This document shows positions 55,175-61,862 of a DNA stretch of 64,000 bases, piece after piece. Below the pieces are notes generated by a model. It saw only the letters and a list, made by a program, of their open reading frames with translations. It was not told the origin of the DNA and searched no databases. The DNA is from Candidatus Latescibacterota bacterium (GTDB taxonomy: Bacteria > Latescibacterota > UBA2968 > UBA8231): the NCBI GenBank assembly GCA_963422735.1, contig OY730476.1, positions 1,344,001 to 1,408,000 of the forward strand, in the 5' to 3' direction. The translations under genes and the position numbers were made by a program. Numbering within the stretch: position 1 is the stretch's first letter; each line of letters opens with the position of its first letter.

Positions 55175-56164
55175 CTACAACCACTGTAATAAGAAACGAG
55201 CCTGTGCCTCCTCTAGGCTTAGCAAGCCTTGTACGTACTCGCGGATGCGCTTCAGCATGGCCGCCGGGTCGTTGTACGCTCCCTTGAAGAACAAGTCGCT
55301 CGTCGTCTCCCAACGCCGGCCTATGTCCCCAAAGGCATCGGCCGCAGCCGACAGAGCACCCAAGCCGGTTGCCGCCGCTAGCCGCCGCAGGTTGTCGTCC
55401 AGCCGCCGCCGCTGCGGGCCGAGTAGGGCCATCTGGCTAAACACCTCCTGCATCCAAACGCGCAGGCTCTCTTCGTCCCGCCCAATCTGACGCTCCATCT
55501 CTTCGACAAAGCGCTGCGCGGCTGGCAGGCCCGTCTCTACCCGGCCGACCTTGTTGCCCGCGAGCATCTCCCGCACATCTTCCAAGAGTACCTGCCCCAT
55601 TTTTTCAACTGGATAGGGGTCGAGGCCCTCGGGTACCGCGTAGTCGTACACCACCAGCTCGGGCAACATCTCGGGCAAGCAAGACAGCGGAACCTTCCCC
55701 ACAAAGCCCTGCGGATTGACCAAGATCATCAGCACATCTGCTGCTTGATCGTACCCGGAGATGAGCATGGCTTCGCTCGCGCCGGGTGTGCGATTGTAGT
55801 AAAAGGCCGCATCGCTCACATCGCGTGCATCCACCCAAGCGAGCAACACCCGGTCGGCGGCAATCAACTCCTCAATCGCCTGCCACAGGTCGGCAAAATT
55901 ATCGCGGCGCACCTCGCGGCGCTCAATTCCGTAGAGATAGTACAGGTTGCGGTGGAGCAGCTCGTCGGCGGGCAGGCCGACTGGCATTCTCTCCTCGGCG
56001 TCAAAAAAGAACGACCAGCTCATCAAGGCCCCGTAGTACGCTCGCTCGTCGGCGAGCTGGGGGCTGTAGTATTGGAGCGCGGCCATAATAGTTTCCCCAG
56101 AGACGAACAACATGGGGCGCCCCTCGACTCGGTATAGATTAACAGGGCACAGTACCTTTTTCAC
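55175..56164 (-). CDS. BtrH-like protein (papain/NlpC-like N-domain plus helical C-domain)
   Basis: LLAWVD, MLISGYD, TGLPAAQRF pattern. Confidence 0.55.
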   Translation of the reverse strand: MKKVLCPVNLYRVEGRPMLFVSGETIMAALQYYSPQLADERAYYGALMSWSFFFDAEERMPVGLPADELLHRNLYYLYGIERREVRRDNFADLWQAIEELIAADRVLLAWVDARDVSDAAFYYNRTPGASEAMLISGYDQAADVLMILVNPQGFVGKVPLSCLPEMLPELVVYDYAVPEGLDPYPVEKMGQVLLEDVREMLAGNKVGRVETGLPAAQRFVEEMERQIGRDEESLRVWMQEVFSQMALLGPQRRRLDDNLRRLAAATGLGALSAAADAFGDIGRRWETTSDLFFKGAYNDPAAMLKRIREYVQGLLSLEEAQARFLLQWL

Positions 56165-56227
56165 GGTGTCCTCGGTCGGTTAGAGAGTCGTGACTCATTT
56201 TGCAATCATGGCAGCGAGGCGGGATCT

Positions 56228-56466
56228 TTCCGCGCCTGTCCTGCCCGAAGGCAAGGTGAAGCAGGCGCGAACAGGACGCATCTCCCTCGAAGAAGGAGAA
56301 CAGGAGGCCCCCGAAGGGGCCGGGCCGTGTCCAACATTCCTGCAGAATGCAGCGATGTCTCTACCTATTCGCCAAGGCGGAGGGAGCGACCCTTCGCCGG
56401 GTCTCGGCTATTGTATTAAGCAGATAACCCGACTAAGGCGGGATCTGCAAGGAATGCTGGACAGCC
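56228..56466 (-). ncRNA. Unassigned structured RNA / 5' leader
   Basis: 14-bp outer stem (56463-56450 with 56341-56328) with a G-U pair only on the minus strand; inner hairpins; three downstream cUUCG-capped hairpins; candidate promoter TTGTCG-18-TATCTT just upstream. Confidence 0.65.
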
Positions 56467-56648
56467 TGAAGATAGGGGGAGATGACCGCTGGCGACAAGG
56501 CAAACGGAAAAAATCCTTAACGGGTAACGGTGGCGTTACGTAGATTCCAAAATCGGCTACACTGGCAGACACCCGCACACACATCGGCCAAGGAGCAACC
56601 TCCGCCAGTTTTGTATCTTTTTTACGACATCTTTGTTTGGTAATGGTC

Positions 56649-56678
56649 AAAAAAAACCAGCCCCTTTGCGGGGCTGGT
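56649..56678 (-). terminator. Intrinsic terminator of the ABC-ABC-DUF1854 operon
   Basis: CCAGCCCC-GCAAA-GGGGCTGG followed by U8. Confidence 0.9.
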
Positions 56679-56704
56679 CGTCATGCTGTAACTGCGAGCG
56701 CTAG

Positions 56705-57235
56705 TCAGACGACCTGTTCAACCGCTGCCAAACTCTTCTTATCCAGTTCGCCGAGATGAGGAATTTCAAAGCGGTTGCCGTCCACGTCGGTGATCAGCAG
56801 CCGGTGGTCGCCGAGCCACTGGGCGTTTTCCGAGACGTTTTGGACGACGAACTCGCGCGGGCCGCGGTCGGTCTGCACGTCCCAATAAGAAGTGCCGTAT
56901 TCGTTGCGCACCGCGTTGACCCGCTGAATCACCGCCGTCAAATAGCGGCGGTCCAGCTCCTCCTCAATCAAGGCGCACGCCTCTCGATCGAGCTGTTTGA
57001 GGTCGTCGATCATACAGATCTCCTCGTCTTTGGCGTCGAGGAGACAAACATAGCGAGTCGGGTGGGAAAGCGGCGCGGCGCGGACCACCTTCACCTTCAG
57101 GTACGAGCGGTCGCCGTCGAGGGTCAAGCGCAAAATCCAAGCCGGCTCGCGGAAGAGGCGCAGCTTGCCAATTTCTACGTGCTCGGGGTGAGTCACGGAA
57201 ATCGGGGTGATCGATAGTTTTGCGTTATCTGTCAT
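56705..57235 (-). CDS. DUF1854 domain protein
   Basis: VRAAPLSHP..YV, EELDRRY, WDVQTDRG, DVDGNRFEI. Confidence 0.85.
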   Translation of the reverse strand: MTDNAKLSITPISVTHPEHVEIGKLRLFREPAWILRLTLDGDRSYLKVKVVRAAPLSHPTRYVCLLDAKDEEICMIDDLKQLDREACALIEEELDRRYLTAVIQRVNAVRNEYGTSYWDVQTDRGPREFVVQNVSENAQWLGDHRLLITDVDGNRFEIPHLGELDKKSLAAVEQVV

Positions 57236-57249
57236 TGCGTCGTTCCTTG

Positions 57250-59460
57250 CTAGCCGCTGGTGGCCATGACCGCCGATGTCTCGTGTTGGGTCTTTACGAG
57301 ATTGTAAAAAATGCCCTCGCGCGCCATGAGTTCCTCGTGCGTGCCAATTTCGGCTATTTTGCCCTCGTCGAGGACCACGAGGCGATCCGCGCTGCGCAAG
57401 GTCGAGAGCCGGTGGGCAATGGCGAAGGTCGTGCGGCCTTTGACGAGCCGCTGAATCGCCTCTTGGATCTTTTTCTCGGTCGGCGTGTCGAGCGACGAAG
57501 TCGCCTCGTCTAAGATCAGGATCCTCGGATCGTGGAGAATGGCCCGCGCAATCGCGATGCGCTGCTTCTCGCCGCCGGCGAGTTTGTTGCCCTGCTCCCC
57601 GACGACCATGTCGTACCCGTCGGGCTGTTTGACGATGAACTCGTGGGCGTTGGCCGCACGGGCCGCACGCAAAATCTCGTCGAACGTGGCACCGGACTTG
57701 CCGTAAGCAATGTTTTCGGCAATCGTGCCATTGAACAAAAACGACTGCTGGGCAACCAAGCCGATCTGCGAGCGCAGGTCGCGCAGGCAAATTTTGCGGA
57801 TATCGACCCCATCAATGGCGAGGCGGCCGAGCGAGACATCGTAAAAGCGCGTGATTAGGTTGATCAGCGTACTCTTGCCCGCCCCAGACTTGCCCACCAA
57901 GCCGATCATCTCGCCCGGTTGCACCACTAAGTCGATGTCGCGCAGGACGACCTTGCCCGGGTCGTAGCCAAAAGCCGCGCCTTCAAAGGCTACTTGGCCC
58001 TTAAGCGCGGGAGCGCGCTGGGCACTGGGATTGTCGAAAGGCTCGGAGGGCGCATCGACGATTTCAAAGATGCGCTCGGCACCGGCAAAGGCCCGCACCA
58101 TGAAGCTATAGAAGTCGCCAAACCACTTGAGCGGGTGGTAGAGCATCCACAGATAGGCGATAAAGGCCATCAGCTCACCCAGCGACAGGTCGCCACCAAC
58201 GATCTGCTGACCGCCGAAATACCACACGAAGAACCCGCCAAAGCTCATAAAAAAGTTGGTCACCATGAAGAAGACTAACCAAGAGCGCTCTGCGCTGACG
58301 CTGATTTGGCGCAAGGCGTGGTTGCGCTGATCAAAGCGCTCGGACTCGCGGTGCTCTTGCGCAAAAGCCTTGACAACGCGGATGCCGGCGATCGACTCGT
58401 TGAGATGAGTAGTAAGCCGCGACCAGCGCGCCGACCAACGGCCCCAGAAGCGCTGGAGGCGATTCCAGATGAGGCTTGAGCCAATGACAATCGGCGGCAC
58501 CGGGGCCAGCACGTAGAGGGTCAGCTCCCAGTTCATGTAGAACAGCAGCCCCAGGATGCCGACGATCATCGCGGCATTAGAGACGATGTAGGGCATGTCA
58601 AAGAGCAGATAGTCTTCGACCATCTCCGAGTCGTTGTTCATGCGGGAGATCAAGGCACCAACCTTGCGCTTGTCGTAAAAGCGCAGGGGCAGGTACTGGA
58701 GTGCCTTGAACAAGTCCGTGCGCAAGTGCTCGATGGCGCGGAAGCCGACCCGAGTGTTGAGCCAGCGGCGGACCACACCGACGCCCCACTCGACGACCCC
58801 AATCAAGAAAAGGCCGCCGACTAGCCAGTAGAGCAGGTTGGTAGCCGCGCCGGGGACGAGTACGTCGTCGATGAGATGCTTAATGATATAGGGCGGTGCC
58901 AACTCCAGAAGCGAGGAGAACACGGTCAAGCCTAGCAACGAGACTAGCTGGAGGCGATAGGGCAGCATGTAGCGGATCAGGCGCTTAAAGGTATCGAATT
59001 TGGCGATGCAGACCGGGCATATCCCGCCCACCTCGGGCAGCCGACGCTGGCATTGCTCGCAGTGCGTGTAGTCGAGCTCGTGAGGCAGGTTGAGATCTTG
59101 GCCCTCTTTAAGCTGTGCGATGCCCCCGGCGACCTCGGCGAATTTGGGCGCTAGTGAATTGGAGTAGTACAGATGCGTTGGTGCGCCCTCTTCGCGCTCC
59201 AGCTCCAAGCGCCCACCGCCGACTAGCGCCTCAATGCGGGCGGACTTGACCGACGACAGCGAAAATTCCACATCGCCGCCCGAGCCGTTCGGCTCCAAGA
59301 CCATCAGGCGCTTCGACGTGACGACCAACCAGAGCTGCTCAAAGCGGTCCTCGCCGACCATATCCGTGGCGACTTGGATCAGGACTTGCTCCTCGCGGCC
59401 CTTGCGCGATTCGACTTTGGCTTCGACGGTGCGCGGTAGATTTTCCAAAAAGGTGGACAT
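57250..59460 (-). CDS. ABC exporter (TMD+NBD) with N-terminal extension
   Basis: GKSGAGKS, LAGGEKQR (degenerate signature), ILDEATS. Confidence 0.93.
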   Translation of the reverse strand: MSTFLENLPRTVEAKVESRKGREEQVLIQVATDMVGEDRFEQLWLVVTSKRLMVLEPNGSGGDVEFSLSSVKSARIEALVGGGRLELEREEGAPTHLYYSNSLAPKFAEVAGGIAQLKEGQDLNLPHELDYTHCEQCQRRLPEVGGICPVCIAKFDTFKRLIRYMLPYRLQLVSLLGLTVFSSLLELAPPYIIKHLIDDVLVPGAATNLLYWLVGGLFLIGVVEWGVGVVRRWLNTRVGFRAIEHLRTDLFKALQYLPLRFYDKRKVGALISRMNNDSEMVEDYLLFDMPYIVSNAAMIVGILGLLFYMNWELTLYVLAPVPPIVIGSSLIWNRLQRFWGRWSARWSRLTTHLNESIAGIRVVKAFAQEHRESERFDQRNHALRQISVSAERSWLVFFMVTNFFMSFGGFFVWYFGGQQIVGGDLSLGELMAFIAYLWMLYHPLKWFGDFYSFMVRAFAGAERIFEIVDAPSEPFDNPSAQRAPALKGQVAFEGAAFGYDPGKVVLRDIDLVVQPGEMIGLVGKSGAGKSTLINLITRFYDVSLGRLAIDGVDIRKICLRDLRSQIGLVAQQSFLFNGTIAENIAYGKSGATFDEILRAARAANAHEFIVKQPDGYDMVVGEQGNKLAGGEKQRIAIARAILHDPRILILDEATSSLDTPTEKKIQEAIQRLVKGRTTFAIAHRLSTLRSADRLVVLDEGKIAEIGTHEELMAREGIFYNLVKTQHETSAVMATSG

Positions 59461-59467
59461 GGATGGT

Positions 59468-61702
59468 CTATTCCTTGATGGCGATGATCTCGGCCACCTG
59501 TTTTTGCAAATTGACCAACTCGTAAAAGGTCCCCTGTTTCTCCAGAAGCTCTGCGTGCGTCCCCGCCTCGACGATGCGACCGTCGTCGAGGACCATCAGC
59601 CGGTCGGCATTGCGCAGAGTCGAAAGCCGGTGGGCAATTGCCACGGTGGTGCGACCCTCGATGAGCCGCTGAATCGCCTCCTGGATATGCAGCTCCGTCT
59701 CCACATCGACCGAGGCGGTGGCTTCGTCGAGGATTAACACGCGCGGGTTGTGGAGGATGGCGCGGGCAATGGAGACGCGCTGGCGCTCCCCCCCCGATAG
59801 CCCGGCCCCCTTTTCTCCGACTTGGGTCTCATAGCCATCGGGCTTGGCCATGATGAAGTTGTGGGCGTTGGCCGCACGAGCGGCCGCCATGATGTCCGCA
59901 AAGGAGGAGCCGGGCCGCCCGTAGCCGATGTTTTCGGCAATGGTACCGGAAAAAAGCACGGGCTCCTGCAGCACGATGCCGATTTGCGAGCGCAAGTCGC
60001 GTAAGGCGATGCGGCGAATGTCGATTCCGTCGATCTCAATGGACCCGTAGTCAACGTCGTAGAAGCGGGCGATTAGGTTGACGGTTGTCGTCTTGCCGAC
60101 CCCAGACTTACCCACGAGGCCAATCATCTCGCCCGGCTGGACGTCCAAGTCAAAATCCTTCAGCACCGGCTTGCTCTTGTCGTAGCCAAAGGTGACGCCC
60201 CGGAAGCGAATGCCTCCCTTCATCCGCAGCATTCGCTCCGCGGTCGGATCCTCGTATGCCTCGGGCCGGGTGTCGATGACCTCGAAGATGCGCTCGGCCC
60301 CGGCAAAAGCCCGCGACATCCAGGCATTGACTTGGCCGAACCACTCCAAGGGGCCGTAGAACAGCCACATATACGAGTAAAAGGCCAACAACGTGCCCAA
60401 GGTCATCTTGCCGCCGAGGACTTGCAGCCCGCCGAGGAGCCAGACGATCAAGACTCCCAAACCCGTCAAGAACGTGATGGTAGCGAAGAACACGCCGCGA
60501 TTTATCGCGGTCTTTTCGGCGACTTCGCGCAGCCTGCCATTGGGCTTGGCAAAGGCCGCTATTTCCCGGCCCTCTTGGGCAAATGCCTTGACGACGCGGA
60601 TGCCGGTAAGCGTCTCCACTGTGCGCTCGGTCAGGCCAGACCAGACCTCGCCCCACTTAACGAAAAACCCGCGCAGCCGCTTCCAAAAAATCACCCCCCA
60701 CAGCATGATCAGCGGAACGGGCACCAACACGTACAGGCTCAACGACCAACTCATCCAGAACAAAAAGCCAAGTATGCCAAAGACCATCAGGCCGTTGATG
60801 ACGATATAGGGCAAGCCATCGACGAGGAAGTCCTGTAACATGCCGGCGTCGCGGGTGGCCCGTGAGATGAGGGAGCCGACCTTGCGCTTGTCGTAAAACT
60901 GCAAGGACAGCATTTCCAACCGGCGGTAGAGAAGCGAGCGAATATCCGCGGTGAGCTGCGCCCCGAGCCAAGTCGCAATCCAGCCGTGGGCCCATTCGGC
61001 GACCCAAGACAAGAAGCGGACGCCGACCAATCCGAGGACTAACAGGCCCAAGAGGTGGATGCGCTCGTCAAACCCCGTGGCGTGGCCCTCCACCGGGATC
61101 AACACTTCATCGACAATGCGCTTAGTAATTAGCGGTGGGACCAACTCCGCGGCCGTGGTGGCAATGGAGGCGAAGGCCAAGATGCCCGCTTTGAGCTTGT
61201 ACGGGCCGAGATAGCTAGCGATGCGCTTGAGGGTCGCCAGTTTTTTGATACACGCCGGACAGATGCCGTTTTTCTCTGGCAAGAGCTGATGACAGCGCCC
61301 GCAGCGGGTCCGGTCCAAGTGCCCATTGACGACCAACGGCTGGCCTTGGCGCAGCTGCTCCAAGCCCCGCGCCACCTCGGACATCTTGTCGGCCTCCGAG
61401 TTAGTGTAGCCCAGCGACAAAGCCGGCCCATCCACGCGCTCGATCGCCAATTTACCGCCGCCGACGAGTGCGTCGGTGCGCACCTCGGCCAGCGAGGCGA
61501 GTGGGATATCGACGATCTCACCCTGAGCGGGCACGACGAGGACCCGACGCGGAGTGGCCACCAGCCACTGGTGGCCAAAGCGGCCGTCGGCGGCCAAATC
61601 CGTAGAGGCGCGGATTAGCACCTCCTCCTCAGCGGGTAAGGCGGCGGCAATCCGCGCATCGGCGGTCGCGTCGGCTGGCTCTAGCAGTTTTTGCATGCTC
61701 AT
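59468..61702 (-). CDS. ABC exporter (TMD+NBD) with N-terminal extension, paralog
   Basis: GKSGVGKT, LSGGERQR, ILDEATA. Confidence 0.93.
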   Translation of the reverse strand: MSMQKLLEPADATADARIAAALPAEEEVLIRASTDLAADGRFGHQWLVATPRRVLVVPAQGEIVDIPLASLAEVRTDALVGGGKLAIERVDGPALSLGYTNSEADKMSEVARGLEQLRQGQPLVVNGHLDRTRCGRCHQLLPEKNGICPACIKKLATLKRIASYLGPYKLKAGILAFASIATTAAELVPPLITKRIVDEVLIPVEGHATGFDERIHLLGLLVLGLVGVRFLSWVAEWAHGWIATWLGAQLTADIRSLLYRRLEMLSLQFYDKRKVGSLISRATRDAGMLQDFLVDGLPYIVINGLMVFGILGFLFWMSWSLSLYVLVPVPLIMLWGVIFWKRLRGFFVKWGEVWSGLTERTVETLTGIRVVKAFAQEGREIAAFAKPNGRLREVAEKTAINRGVFFATITFLTGLGVLIVWLLGGLQVLGGKMTLGTLLAFYSYMWLFYGPLEWFGQVNAWMSRAFAGAERIFEVIDTRPEAYEDPTAERMLRMKGGIRFRGVTFGYDKSKPVLKDFDLDVQPGEMIGLVGKSGVGKTTTVNLIARFYDVDYGSIEIDGIDIRRIALRDLRSQIGIVLQEPVLFSGTIAENIGYGRPGSSFADIMAAARAANAHNFIMAKPDGYETQVGEKGAGLSGGERQRVSIARAILHNPRVLILDEATASVDVETELHIQEAIQRLIEGRTTVAIAHRLSTLRNADRLMVLDDGRIVEAGTHAELLEKQGTFYELVNLQKQVAEIIAIKE

Positions 61703-61862
61703 GCCTCGGCAAAACCCCGGGAGTGGCCCCGGAAAACAGGTTGACTCAACCCTGAAGAAGCTACTCTTGGCGTTTGGACAATGGCAAGGGAAAATTGGGA
61801 AAGGGCACTCGGTTGTGGACAATCGCTTTGCCAACCCGCTCTTATGCTTACATTATATATTT

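Follow-up and report, generated by a model that had tools for sequence, protein, structure and literature searches.

An unannotated family of leader RNAs, found across bacterial phyla, that may silence their own genes in the manner of the phage P1 c4 RNA

The window analysed here, a stretch of 64,000 nucleotides (nt) from a Candidatus Latescibacterota genome (contig OY730476.1 of assembly GCA_963422735.1, positions 1,344,001 to 1,408,000), carries a structured RNA at 56306-56466 of the minus strand, behind a sigma-70-like promoter. Along the minus strand of 56000-56800 the order of features was the end of a DUF1854-domain gene, a terminator, about 150 nt of weakly conserved spacer, the promoter hexamers and the structured RNA (Table 1). 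The start of the first gene beyond it, which encodes a protein of 329 amino acids (aa), was located 106-174 nt past the end of the RNA model in the window copy and in four listed orthologs. The RNA is a member of a large, unannotated and undescribed family of leader RNAs that extends across phyla. On its upstream side, 56705-61834 of the minus strand contained two fused ABC exporter genes (ABC_membrane + ABC_tran) and the DUF1854-domain gene; given these exporters on one side and the HlyD-type and Yip1 genes on the other, the surroundings resemble an export locus.

A preliminary description of this stretch, made from its letters, had proposed the promoter TTGTCG-18-TATCTT, and these letters were found on the minus strand where it had placed them. 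The promoter scan listed no site at TTGTCG/TATCTT, because the match was 8 of 12 and the cut-off was 9. The assignment was made because the paralogs had comparable hexamers at the equivalent place, TTGACA-like and TAnnnT with a spacing of 17 nt, just before the first helix of the RNA.

Table 1. Features at and around the structured RNA, in positions of the window
Feature	Position	Strand	Basis or remark
Terminator, strong, of textbook form	56679-56655	minus	End of the DUF1854-domain gene
-35-like hexamer TTGTCG	56493..56498	minus	Direct reading; hexamers at the same distance in paralogs are TTGACA, TTGACC, TTGACT or TTGATT
-10-like hexamer TATCTT, 18 nt after the -35 hexamer	56469..56474	minus	Direct reading; kept in 15 orthologs
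P1a, UGUCCAGCAUUCCUUGCAGA, 5' strand of the end-to-end helix P1, read as mask (target mimic)	56444..56463	minus	Pairs with P1b
CCCG, possible local hairpin P0 with CGGG of LRa	56439..56442	minus	Sequence and alignments; the CGGG partner is invariant, so it carries no covariation signal
LRa, GUCGGGUUA, 5' strand of the long-range helix (LR), near-invariant first G	56425..56433	minus	RNAalifold pairing with 56327-56319
Conserved core: P2 UCUGCU/GGUAGA (56424-19 with 56365-60), P3 GCCG/UGGC, apical insert 56375-56404	56360..56424	minus	
Core internal loop UAAUACAAUA, opposite GAAUA	56418-09	minus	Letters invariant or nearly so in relatives
Linker (56347-56359) and P1b (56328-56346, UCUGCAGGAAUGUUGGACA), 3' strand of P1, read as antisense element	56328..56359	minus	
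LRb (CGGCCCGGC, 56319-56327), then CCC as the N-C-C tail after the helix	56316..56327	minus	
P5 hairpin GGCCCC-UUCG-GGGGCC, GGC common to P5 and LRb	56306..56321	minus	Helix 8; 92% paired in relatives
Hairpin CUCCUUC-UUCG-AGGGAG with the Shine-Dalgarno (SD)-like GAGGGAG	56277..56303	minus	Two-sided changes in orthologs: UCUCC/GGAGA, CAUCC/GGAUA, CUUCU/GGAAG
First gene 3' of the RNA, 329 aa, GTG start, Pfam-less; then a Yip1-domain gene, then an HlyD-type gene	55175..56164	minus	

The fold of a 254-nt stretch of the minus strand gave a z-score of -4.77, which was equalled by none of 200 shuffles, and that of the plus strand gave -3.05. G-U pairs likewise favoured the minus strand, as had been read earlier. 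P1, LR, the core and P5 were all intact in the window copy. P1 paired UGUCCAGCAUUCCUUGCAGA (56463-56444) with UCUGCAGGAAUGUUGGACA (56346-56328) over 19 base pairs (bp), with a calculated energy of -31.2 kcal/mol. As an alternative, P1b could form the local hairpin CUGCA-UUC-UGCAG; the two mutually exclusive partners of GCAGA that the preliminary description had noticed thus correspond to P1 and to this hairpin. LR, which that description had overlooked, joined GUCGGGUU (56433-26) to GGCCCGGC (56326-19) by eight pairs with an energy of -12.2 kcal/mol and crossed P1. Short GC-rich pairings competed around it, since CCCG could pair with CGGG of LRa and P5 overlapped LRb by 3-6 letters; in the other lineages the hairpin at the P5 position used 5-6 letters of LRb. 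P5 did not have the form of an intrinsic terminator, being followed by UCCUGUUC instead of a U-run and missing from the list of the terminator scan, and an assembled contig from an RNA library ran on past it. The paired ends, the inner helix and the A-rich loop described earlier were all present on the minus strand, and their helices were supported by covariation in relatives. The letters of the apical GACCC/GGGUC stem were also present in the window, but this stem was not kept in relatives, where the conserved apical pairing is GGC...GCC around GGG-UMGCU-CCC. All three of the UUCG-capped hairpins in the earlier account existed, but the third (about 56230-56279) lay outside the RNA unit, as discussed below.

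The genome from which the window was taken, one contig of 4.95 Mb that is 95% complete, contained one copy of the RNA unit. Matches were found by blastn in 40 of 61 related genomes, 15 of them ortholog-grade (89-96% identity over at least 210 nt), together with many weaker paralogs. The 15 orthologs were 91-96% identical to the window copy over 56467-56318 and 85-95% identical in the flanking genes, and their identity in the intergenic flanks was 3-59% in the upstream spacer and 45-50% over 56267-56168. The RNA was thus highly conserved between poorly conserved intergenic flanks, and it is therefore a discrete element under selection. A covariance model, R1, was made from 22 sequences with 171 positions and 33 pairs, among them no sequence of sRNA-Xcc1, an Rfam family to which we return below. 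R1 matched 73 of 132 genomes of the class, with 1-14 copies in each (f1 35/75, f2 19/31, f3 1/3, f4 17/22). When contigs representing one genome per species were searched with a degenerate 28-letter pattern of the core, at least 120 stretches were found, and 80 loci were among the matches listed. R1 aligned at full length to 79 of these 80 loci with E <= 1.7e-10, giving 80 matches because one locus carried two copies. The titles of the 80 listed loci named at least 10 other lineages, all of them metagenome-assembled genomes (MAGs): Latescibacterota, Gemmatimonadota/Longimicrobiales, Binatia, Nitrospirales, Rhodothermales, Bryobacterales/Terriglobia/Acidobacteria, Limisphaerales, Thermodesulfobacteriota and several alpha- and gammaproteobacterial groups. 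Nearest to the window copy among the matches listed were records titled Latescibacteria and Gemmatimonadetes, at 174.7 and 175.2 bits.

No known family accounted for these sequences at accepted thresholds. Rfam 15 gave no match anywhere in the 64-kb window at gathering scores, and at the RNA in 20 cross-phylum members no Rfam family was found at E <= 0.1. The Infernal search against Rfam that had been proposed as a check thus returned no family at threshold, and transfer RNA (tRNA), tmRNA and 6S RNA were all without a match; ARAGORN found no tRNA-like gene in 56100-56700. The RNA had no blastn match among plasmids and phages, and the window-type pattern occurred in none of 2.9 million viral contigs. 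The earlier label "unassigned" holds in so far as no Rfam family reaches its threshold, but it needs amending because the core appears distantly akin to sRNA-Xcc1.

In a Nitrospirales MAG (L153, L158, L171, L200), four copies of the RNA were located in repeats whose 1,428 nt were identical except at one position, beside a transposase fragment. Besides the RNA, each repeat contained a transposase-like gene end, an oppositely oriented gene for a small membrane protein, and a gene whose product was read as a glycosyltransferase of family-25 type; the RNA and the gene evidently move together. At two loci (L034, L035) an incomplete second copy, comprising just the linker and the 3' portion of the core, was present about 100 nt upstream of a full copy. 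The full copies at these loci were without a normal P1, and R1 gave an extra weak match of 23.4 bits in L034. Two "5'-half" relatives (L030 in genome G012, and G022:C1:5077199-5077296) had the promoter, P1a, the linker and the first part of the core at about 80-83% identity over 97 nt and diverged thereafter; they may be decayed copies or free-standing masks.

The helices of the family were supported by compensatory changes. RNAalifold and pair counts in 77 distinct sequences supported LR, P2, P3 and two apical helices. The family form of LR was GUCGGGUNN paired with NNGCCCGGC (GUCGGGU/GCCCGGC), and its two inner pairs occurred in six types (CG 30, AU 20, GU 11, UG 9, GC 4, UA 3). P2 and P3 covaried, one pair of P2 being CG in 44 sequences and UA in 29, and the loop of the inner stem, GAAUACAAYAG/GAAUAG, was invariant in the family. 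Over the whole model 92.7% of cells were paired, compared with 83.3% in shuffles and at most 54.6% when the partners were slid. Two-sided changes were seen in 25 of the 33 pairs, a number reached by none of 500 shuffles. In some members the whole apex was replaced by a tetraloop hairpin.

P1 was hypervariable in sequence and therefore could not be aligned by columns, so each 5' segment was scored against its own 3' segment and against all others. The mean energy was -29.1 kcal/mol with the own partner and -14.8 +/- 4.1 kcal/mol with mismatched partners (n=73). The own partner was the best in 44 of the 73 and ranked fourth or better in 70. P1 had a median length of 19 bp, with a range of 11-24 and at least 15 bp in 72 of 73, and the identity between copies was 37% in P1a and 69% in the core. 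The strands followed each other along the RNA in the order P1a, LRa, core, P1b and LRb, and P1 and LR crossed. As read from these comparisons of sequence, the RNA is built of three covarying helices (P1, LR and P2/P3) around an invariant internal loop.

The variable strand P1b also matched the region in front of the next gene. A start codon preceded by an SD-like word was found within 80 nt of the model end in 96 of 145 distinct loci, commonly at 20-30 nt. P1b paired better with the region 3' of P5 of its own locus than with that of other loci (-18.2 vs -14.5 kcal/mol, n=135; 0 of 5000 permutations were as low), and the same was found for positions -40 to +6 around the start (-17.4 vs -14.1 kcal/mol, n=65). 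The pairing spanned -25 to -6 before the start codon in about 50-58% of sequences. P1b appeared as a two-part element, with a CU-rich 5' part that faces the SD and a 3' part that faces a degenerate copy of P1a located 15-25 nt upstream of the SD. In the absence of P1a, a small hairpin holds the CU-rich part in its loop, as in CGCA-UCUCUC-UGCG, to which CUGCA-UUC-UGCAG is the window equivalent. P1b is complementary both to P1a and to the SD region, and P1a therefore resembles the target; thus P1a, P1b and the target change together. Among the options raised in the preliminary description, a new cis-regulatory leader fitted best, given the closeness of the start codons, the complementarity of P1b to the ribosome-binding region and an RNA-library contig that continues into the gene.

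The genes behind the RNA were diverse. Among the 96 products, 26 had a lipobox and 43 more had a signal-peptide-like or membrane-like N-terminus by a rough ad hoc rule. Of the 76 downstream products with a length of 100 aa or more, 65 were compared with Pfam, 11 near-duplicates having been removed by eye. The families found were LRR with dockerin, FN3, WD40, ankyrin, collagen-like, Ig and SH3, three subtilases, three CsgG-like proteins, an outer-membrane barrel, PEGA, a MunI-type restriction enzyme and a GT2 glycosyltransferase. No Pfam family was found in 44 of 66 proteins, the 329-aa protein of the window among them. The three CsgG-like genes were located 3' of the RNA in differently titled lineages and were 49% identical to each other. 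Among six further loci (L082, L107, L117; L148, L164, L179), some RNAs directly preceded a MunI-type restriction endonuclease gene identified by Pfam and others genes with methyltransferase-like N-termini, the latter by reading only; L148 and L179, where the downstream N-termini were DNA methyltransferase-like, had a minimal apex.

A permissive Rfam scan gave sRNA-Xcc1 (RF02221) as its single relevant match, at 56311-56433 with 17.7 bits and E = 3. The closing long-range helix, the stem with its internal loop and the following hairpin aligned one to one, with the helix and loop letters in common. RF02221 had no match across the whole window genome, and none at E <= 0.1 in the 20 cross-phylum members. 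The motif of the Rfam consensus of sRNA-Xcc1 occurred in at least 107 viral contigs; 16 of 20 viral loci tested, among the matches listed, passed the sRNA-Xcc1 threshold. When R1 was run on 40 such viral loci, 18 were matched at the right place and strand with E from 8e-4 to 0.04 and weak scores of 10.9-17.3 bits, in alignments that covered LRa, P2, the loop, LRb and the P5-like hairpin. The scores being weak, homology to sRNA-Xcc1 was rated as probable and not as demonstrated, and the R1 matches suggest that the core of the window family is probably a distant, enlarged relative of it.

The phage copies showed the same kind of pairing, with their own ribosome-binding site. In the viral loci L249-L328, the loop of the variable hairpin and the linker before the closing helix were complementary to the stretch just upstream of the next SD, with -20.7 kcal/mol for the own stretch and -13.4 for mismatched ones (n=65). 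The own partner was the best in 19 and among the top three in 30 of these 65, and positions -15 to -11 were covered in 82-92%. The next gene was often Rha- or KilA-N-type and antirepressor-like, as judged from N-termini read by eye. This suggests that the sRNA-Xcc1 of Rfam would itself be a c4-like self-targeting RNA. sRNA-Xcc1 was first found in a Xanthomonas campestris integron cassette and also occurs in many phage and prophage contigs. PMC2996969 describes a discrete Northern band of about 100 nt and mapped ends that give 88 nt. A preprint, in the part available, places it upstream of symE in Xanthomonas integron cassettes, and the accessible portions of published work treat it as a trans-acting small RNA (sRNA). 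No description of it as a self-targeting leader was found in those portions of the literature.

We consider it rather probable that the region is the 5' leader of the messenger RNA (mRNA) of the 329-aa/Yip1/HlyD-type operon, and that it is an enlarged sRNA-Xcc1 relative working like c4 of phage P1. In the primary transcript, P1a would mask P1b and leave the ribosome-binding site free. RNase P would cut before the first G of LR and release the mask. The freed P1b would refold into a small hairpin and a single strand, and it would base-pair to the ribosome-binding site in the same transcript or in sister transcripts, by which translation would be turned off. Because the mask, the antisense element and the target vary in concert, every copy would act privately on the gene that it precedes.

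An RNase P substrate is marked by a helix that starts with G, preferably after U, and is followed by N-C-C. In the family, the first base of LR was G in 141 of 142 sequences, with U before it in 79 and A in 34. The base after LRb in these 142 sequences was A in 73, C in 43, G in 14 and U in 12, followed by C at +2 in 119 and at +3 in 118. A gap-free search of the phage sRNA-Xcc1 loci found the G in 57, N-C-C in 44 and the full RCCA in 16 of 72. LR would therefore mimic a tRNA acceptor, since it starts with G, usually after U, and ends on N-C-C, so that an RNase P cut is expected before the G. Maturation of c4 RNA by RNase P was reportedly described by Hartmann et al. in 1995. As further background on these phages, a copy of the c4 target is said to be located upstream of c4 in phage P1, and the specificity of P1 and P7 reportedly goes with matched changes in c4 and its target. 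C4 RNA is named among RNase P substrates in the accessible part of PMC11143913, and according to the accessible part of PMC8198154 c4, icd and ant of P1 form one operon in which the C4 antisense RNA is needed to block ant.

Several results weigh against a c4-like leader at this locus. With regard to the window copy, the pairing of P1b with the downstream hairpin reached only -13.4 kcal/mol, which equals the mismatched-partner background; a conserved start codon after the RNA was not found among the orthologs; and a genome search that allowed 3 mismatches in 20 nt found no second P1a-like site. With regard to kinship, the sRNA-Xcc1 score of 17.7 bits was below the Rfam gathering threshold of 53, and Rfam C4 (RF01695) was not listed at E <= 10 for 56100-56720 or at E <= 0.1 in the 20 members. 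The proposed cleavage by RNase P is read from the starting G and the N-C-C tail, and the C-C after LR could owe its conservation to the P5 stem, of which it is also a part. P1 was on average about 12 kcal/mol more stable than the pairing of P1b with the target, so the switch would need an active step. The crossing of P1 and LR could represent either a pseudoknot or two exclusive states. The alignments behind the pair counts were fitted to the structure of the model, which favours that structure. Finally, assembled contigs carry no RNA ends, strand or levels, RNA libraries can contain DNA, and the 518-nt contig described next reached 56483, upstream of the -10 hexamer.

The RNA was covered, at 90-99% identity, by contigs assembled from three RNA libraries that belong to different studies. 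None of the RNA-library contigs covered 56484-56700, a gap to which no weight is given. One of them, a 518-nt contig of a relative, spanned 55939-56188 and 56291-56483 and joined the RNA to the start of the 329-aa gene; 56 other letters replaced the 102-nt repeat region, and adapter-like letters were present at the upstream end. These contigs give modest support to a leader that is read through into the gene. In the window copy the target pairing has decayed and the gene start lies about 140 nt further on; this copy may act through the stability, processing or polarity of the operon mRNA instead of direct occlusion of a start site. The hairpin at 56277-56303 probably represents what is left of the ancestral target and ribosome-binding site. 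A conserved small open reading frame after the RNA was considered for the ortholog group and rejected, as frames and start codons differed between orthologs.

A ligand-sensing riboswitch is an unlikely alternative. The core, namely LR, P2 and the GAAUACAAYAG/GAAUAG loop, would be the aptamer, and the ligand would set whether shared strands (CCCG / GUCGGG / GCCCGGC / the 3' strand of P5, and P1b) free or hide the ribosome-binding site. A highly conserved core beside variable helices, the chain of mutually exclusive GC-rich pairings P0, LR and P5, the position directly before start codons, and a helix P1 that closes the conserved core as in many riboswitches are all consistent with this. The downstream genes, however, share no pathway (they include LRR, ankyrin, WD40, subtilase, CsgG, MunI and GT2 proteins, and 44 of 66 are Pfam-less), phage relatives precede antirepressor-like genes and Xanthomonas copies precede symE. 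In addition, a 19-bp P1 is too stable for ligand dependence, the apex can be replaced by a tetraloop, and private specificity that covaries three ways is unexpected for a metabolite sensor. The possibility that LR frees the SD by breaking P5 was examined and rejected: with LRb held unpaired there was no consistent shift, the mean SD accessibility being 0.358 vs 0.422, higher in 17 and lower in 29 of 70 sequences (p = 0.11).

Following the way in which sRNA-Xcc1 has been interpreted in print, the RNA could be an independent trans-acting sRNA that ends at P5 and acts on unlinked mRNAs, but we judge this improbable. In its favour, the RNA comes with a promoter and a stable hairpin at the 3' end, the discrete band and mapped ends of sRNA-Xcc1 (PMC2996969) point the same way, and in the window the gene start is distant and the local target pairing has decayed. 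Against this, P5 is without a U-run, the RNA-library contig joins the RNA to the gene, and most loci have a start codon close downstream. The variable strand, moreover, matches the adjacent ribosome-binding site and not a shared target, and the window genome held no other site complementary to P1b within 3 mismatches over 20 nt, shorter complementarity being outside this search.

A passive 5' element, in which the helix and the compact fold guard the mRNA from 5'-end-dependent decay or offer an RNase III site with no switching, has rather poor prospects. It would account for a P1 that begins a few bases from the predicted 5' end and is a regular duplex of about 19 bp with a sequence free to vary, and for a window copy without a matching target. 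It leaves unexplained the invariant core, LR with its N-C-C tail, the complementarity of P1b to the ribosome-binding site in relatives, and the kinship to phage RNAs that have no P1.

The third hairpin behaved differently from the RNA. This GC-rich hairpin, GCGCCUGC...GCAGGACAGGCGCG at 56230-56279 of the minus strand, had 13 further matches in its own genome at E < 1e-3, and the orthologs carried other inserts in its place; it is separate from the RNA unit for these two reasons. From its letters and copies it looks like a repeat of the repetitive extragenic palindromic (REP) type, inserted between the RNA and the 329-aa gene. Orthologs had a shorter related hairpin, CGCGCC-UGAA-GGCGCG, followed by GUGAAAGCCCGCC. 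The 11-nt direct repeat AGATCCCGCCT that had been noticed at 56446-36 and 56227-17 was present, and its copy at 56217-56227 is the tail of the dispersed hairpin element. Many dispersed copies had been named beforehand as the mark of a REP or of a miniature inverted-repeat transposable element (MITE); they were found for the third hairpin only, and the RNA unit was single-copy.

It is very improbable that the whole unit is a DNA-level repeat with an incidental RNA fold, be it an attC-like recombination site or a REP or MITE bounded by terminal inverted repeats. Its ends are indeed inverted repeats, it is multi-copy in relatives, one MAG has four identical copies, each within a repeat of 1.4 kb or more that adjoins a transposase fragment, and sRNA-Xcc1 occurs in integron cassettes. 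The window genome, however, has one copy, and the terminal strands vary (37% identity) while the interior is conserved, which is the opposite of a transposon pattern. The minus strand is preferred both by the G-U pairs and by the fold score, the promoter hexamers keep a fixed spacing, and the copies lie in a constant orientation and at a constant distance from the next start codon; dispersal as a repeat is seen for the third hairpin alone. That the RNA is a short 6S RNA of divergent sequence, as the preliminary description had also suggested, is hardly credible. Its structure and its own promoter would suit such an RNA, and the role is unfilled in the window genome, where the Rfam 6S model had no match at E <= 0.01 (it found 6S in 5 of 14 control genomes), but RF00013 had no match in the region at E <= 10, relatives have up to 14 copies that each precede a different gene, and the fold is branched and crossing and not a rod with a central bubble.

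The interpretation as a c4-like leader can be extended to a cross-phylum class of self-targeting leaders, in which a mask, an antisense element and the own ribosome-binding site are arranged around an acceptor-like core, and in which removal of the mask by RNase P would yield a self-silencing transcript. This extension is tentative, and we would put it at somewhat below an even chance. If it is true, each gene would receive a private, orthogonal control that gives a pulse and then turns off. The controlled genes would encode exported eukaryote-like proteins (LRR, ankyrin, WD40, FN3), proteases, CsgG-like lipoproteins and restriction or modification enzymes, and the hosts would be uncultured Latescibacterota, Binatia, Gemmatimonadota, Nitrospirales, Acidobacteriota and Proteobacteria. 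sRNA-Xcc1 would then be the minimal form in phages and integrons, a cis- or auto-regulatory relative of c4 and not a free trans-acting virulence sRNA, which would revise its treatment in annotations and recent papers. The family would add a widespread unannotated RNA, which is absent from Rfam 15 and was found in hundreds of copies across the searched genomes, and would offer a testable mechanism for the control of surface and secreted proteins in uncultured bacteria. Matched hypervariable triplets of mask, antisense element and target on a constant scaffold would be natural orthogonal translational controllers.

Among known systems, translational riboswitches and SD-sequestering leaders, such as those of type I toxin mRNAs, also use alternative pairings of the 5' untranslated region to expose or hide the SD. 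The window family differs from them in having no common pathway, no candidate ligand and a specificity private to each copy. sRNA-Xcc1 and the window family both have a closing long-range helix G.C.GG / CC.G.C, a stem with AAUACAA.A opposite a GAAUA loop, a following hairpin, and N-C-C after the closing helix; both are located upstream of a gene, and in both the variable part pairs with the next ribosome-binding site. The window RNA differs by the extra 5' strand P1a, which pairs with the region equivalent to the Xcc1 hairpin to form the 19-bp helix, by an apical insert of about 30 nt, and by a GC-rich P5 hairpin without a U-run. Phage copies of sRNA-Xcc1 have no P1 at all, and the Xcc1 motif occurs in at least 107 of the viral contigs, in which the window-type pattern had no match.

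The c4 RNA of phages P1 and P7 (immI operon c4-icd-ant; RF01695) is an antisense RNA located upstream of, and in the same operon as, the genes that it represses, and the window family is arranged in the same way. An antisense element complementary to the downstream ribosome-binding region, as in c4, is present in the family and in phage Xcc1 but not in the window's own copy. In contrast to c4, the family is chromosomal and multi-copy and precedes genes for exported proteins instead of antirepressors, and its mask and antisense strand form one long helix. The copy of the c4 target that is said to be located upstream of c4 would correspond to P1a. By analogy, the window family would thus resemble c4 in its mechanism, as a likeness without membership of the c4 family.

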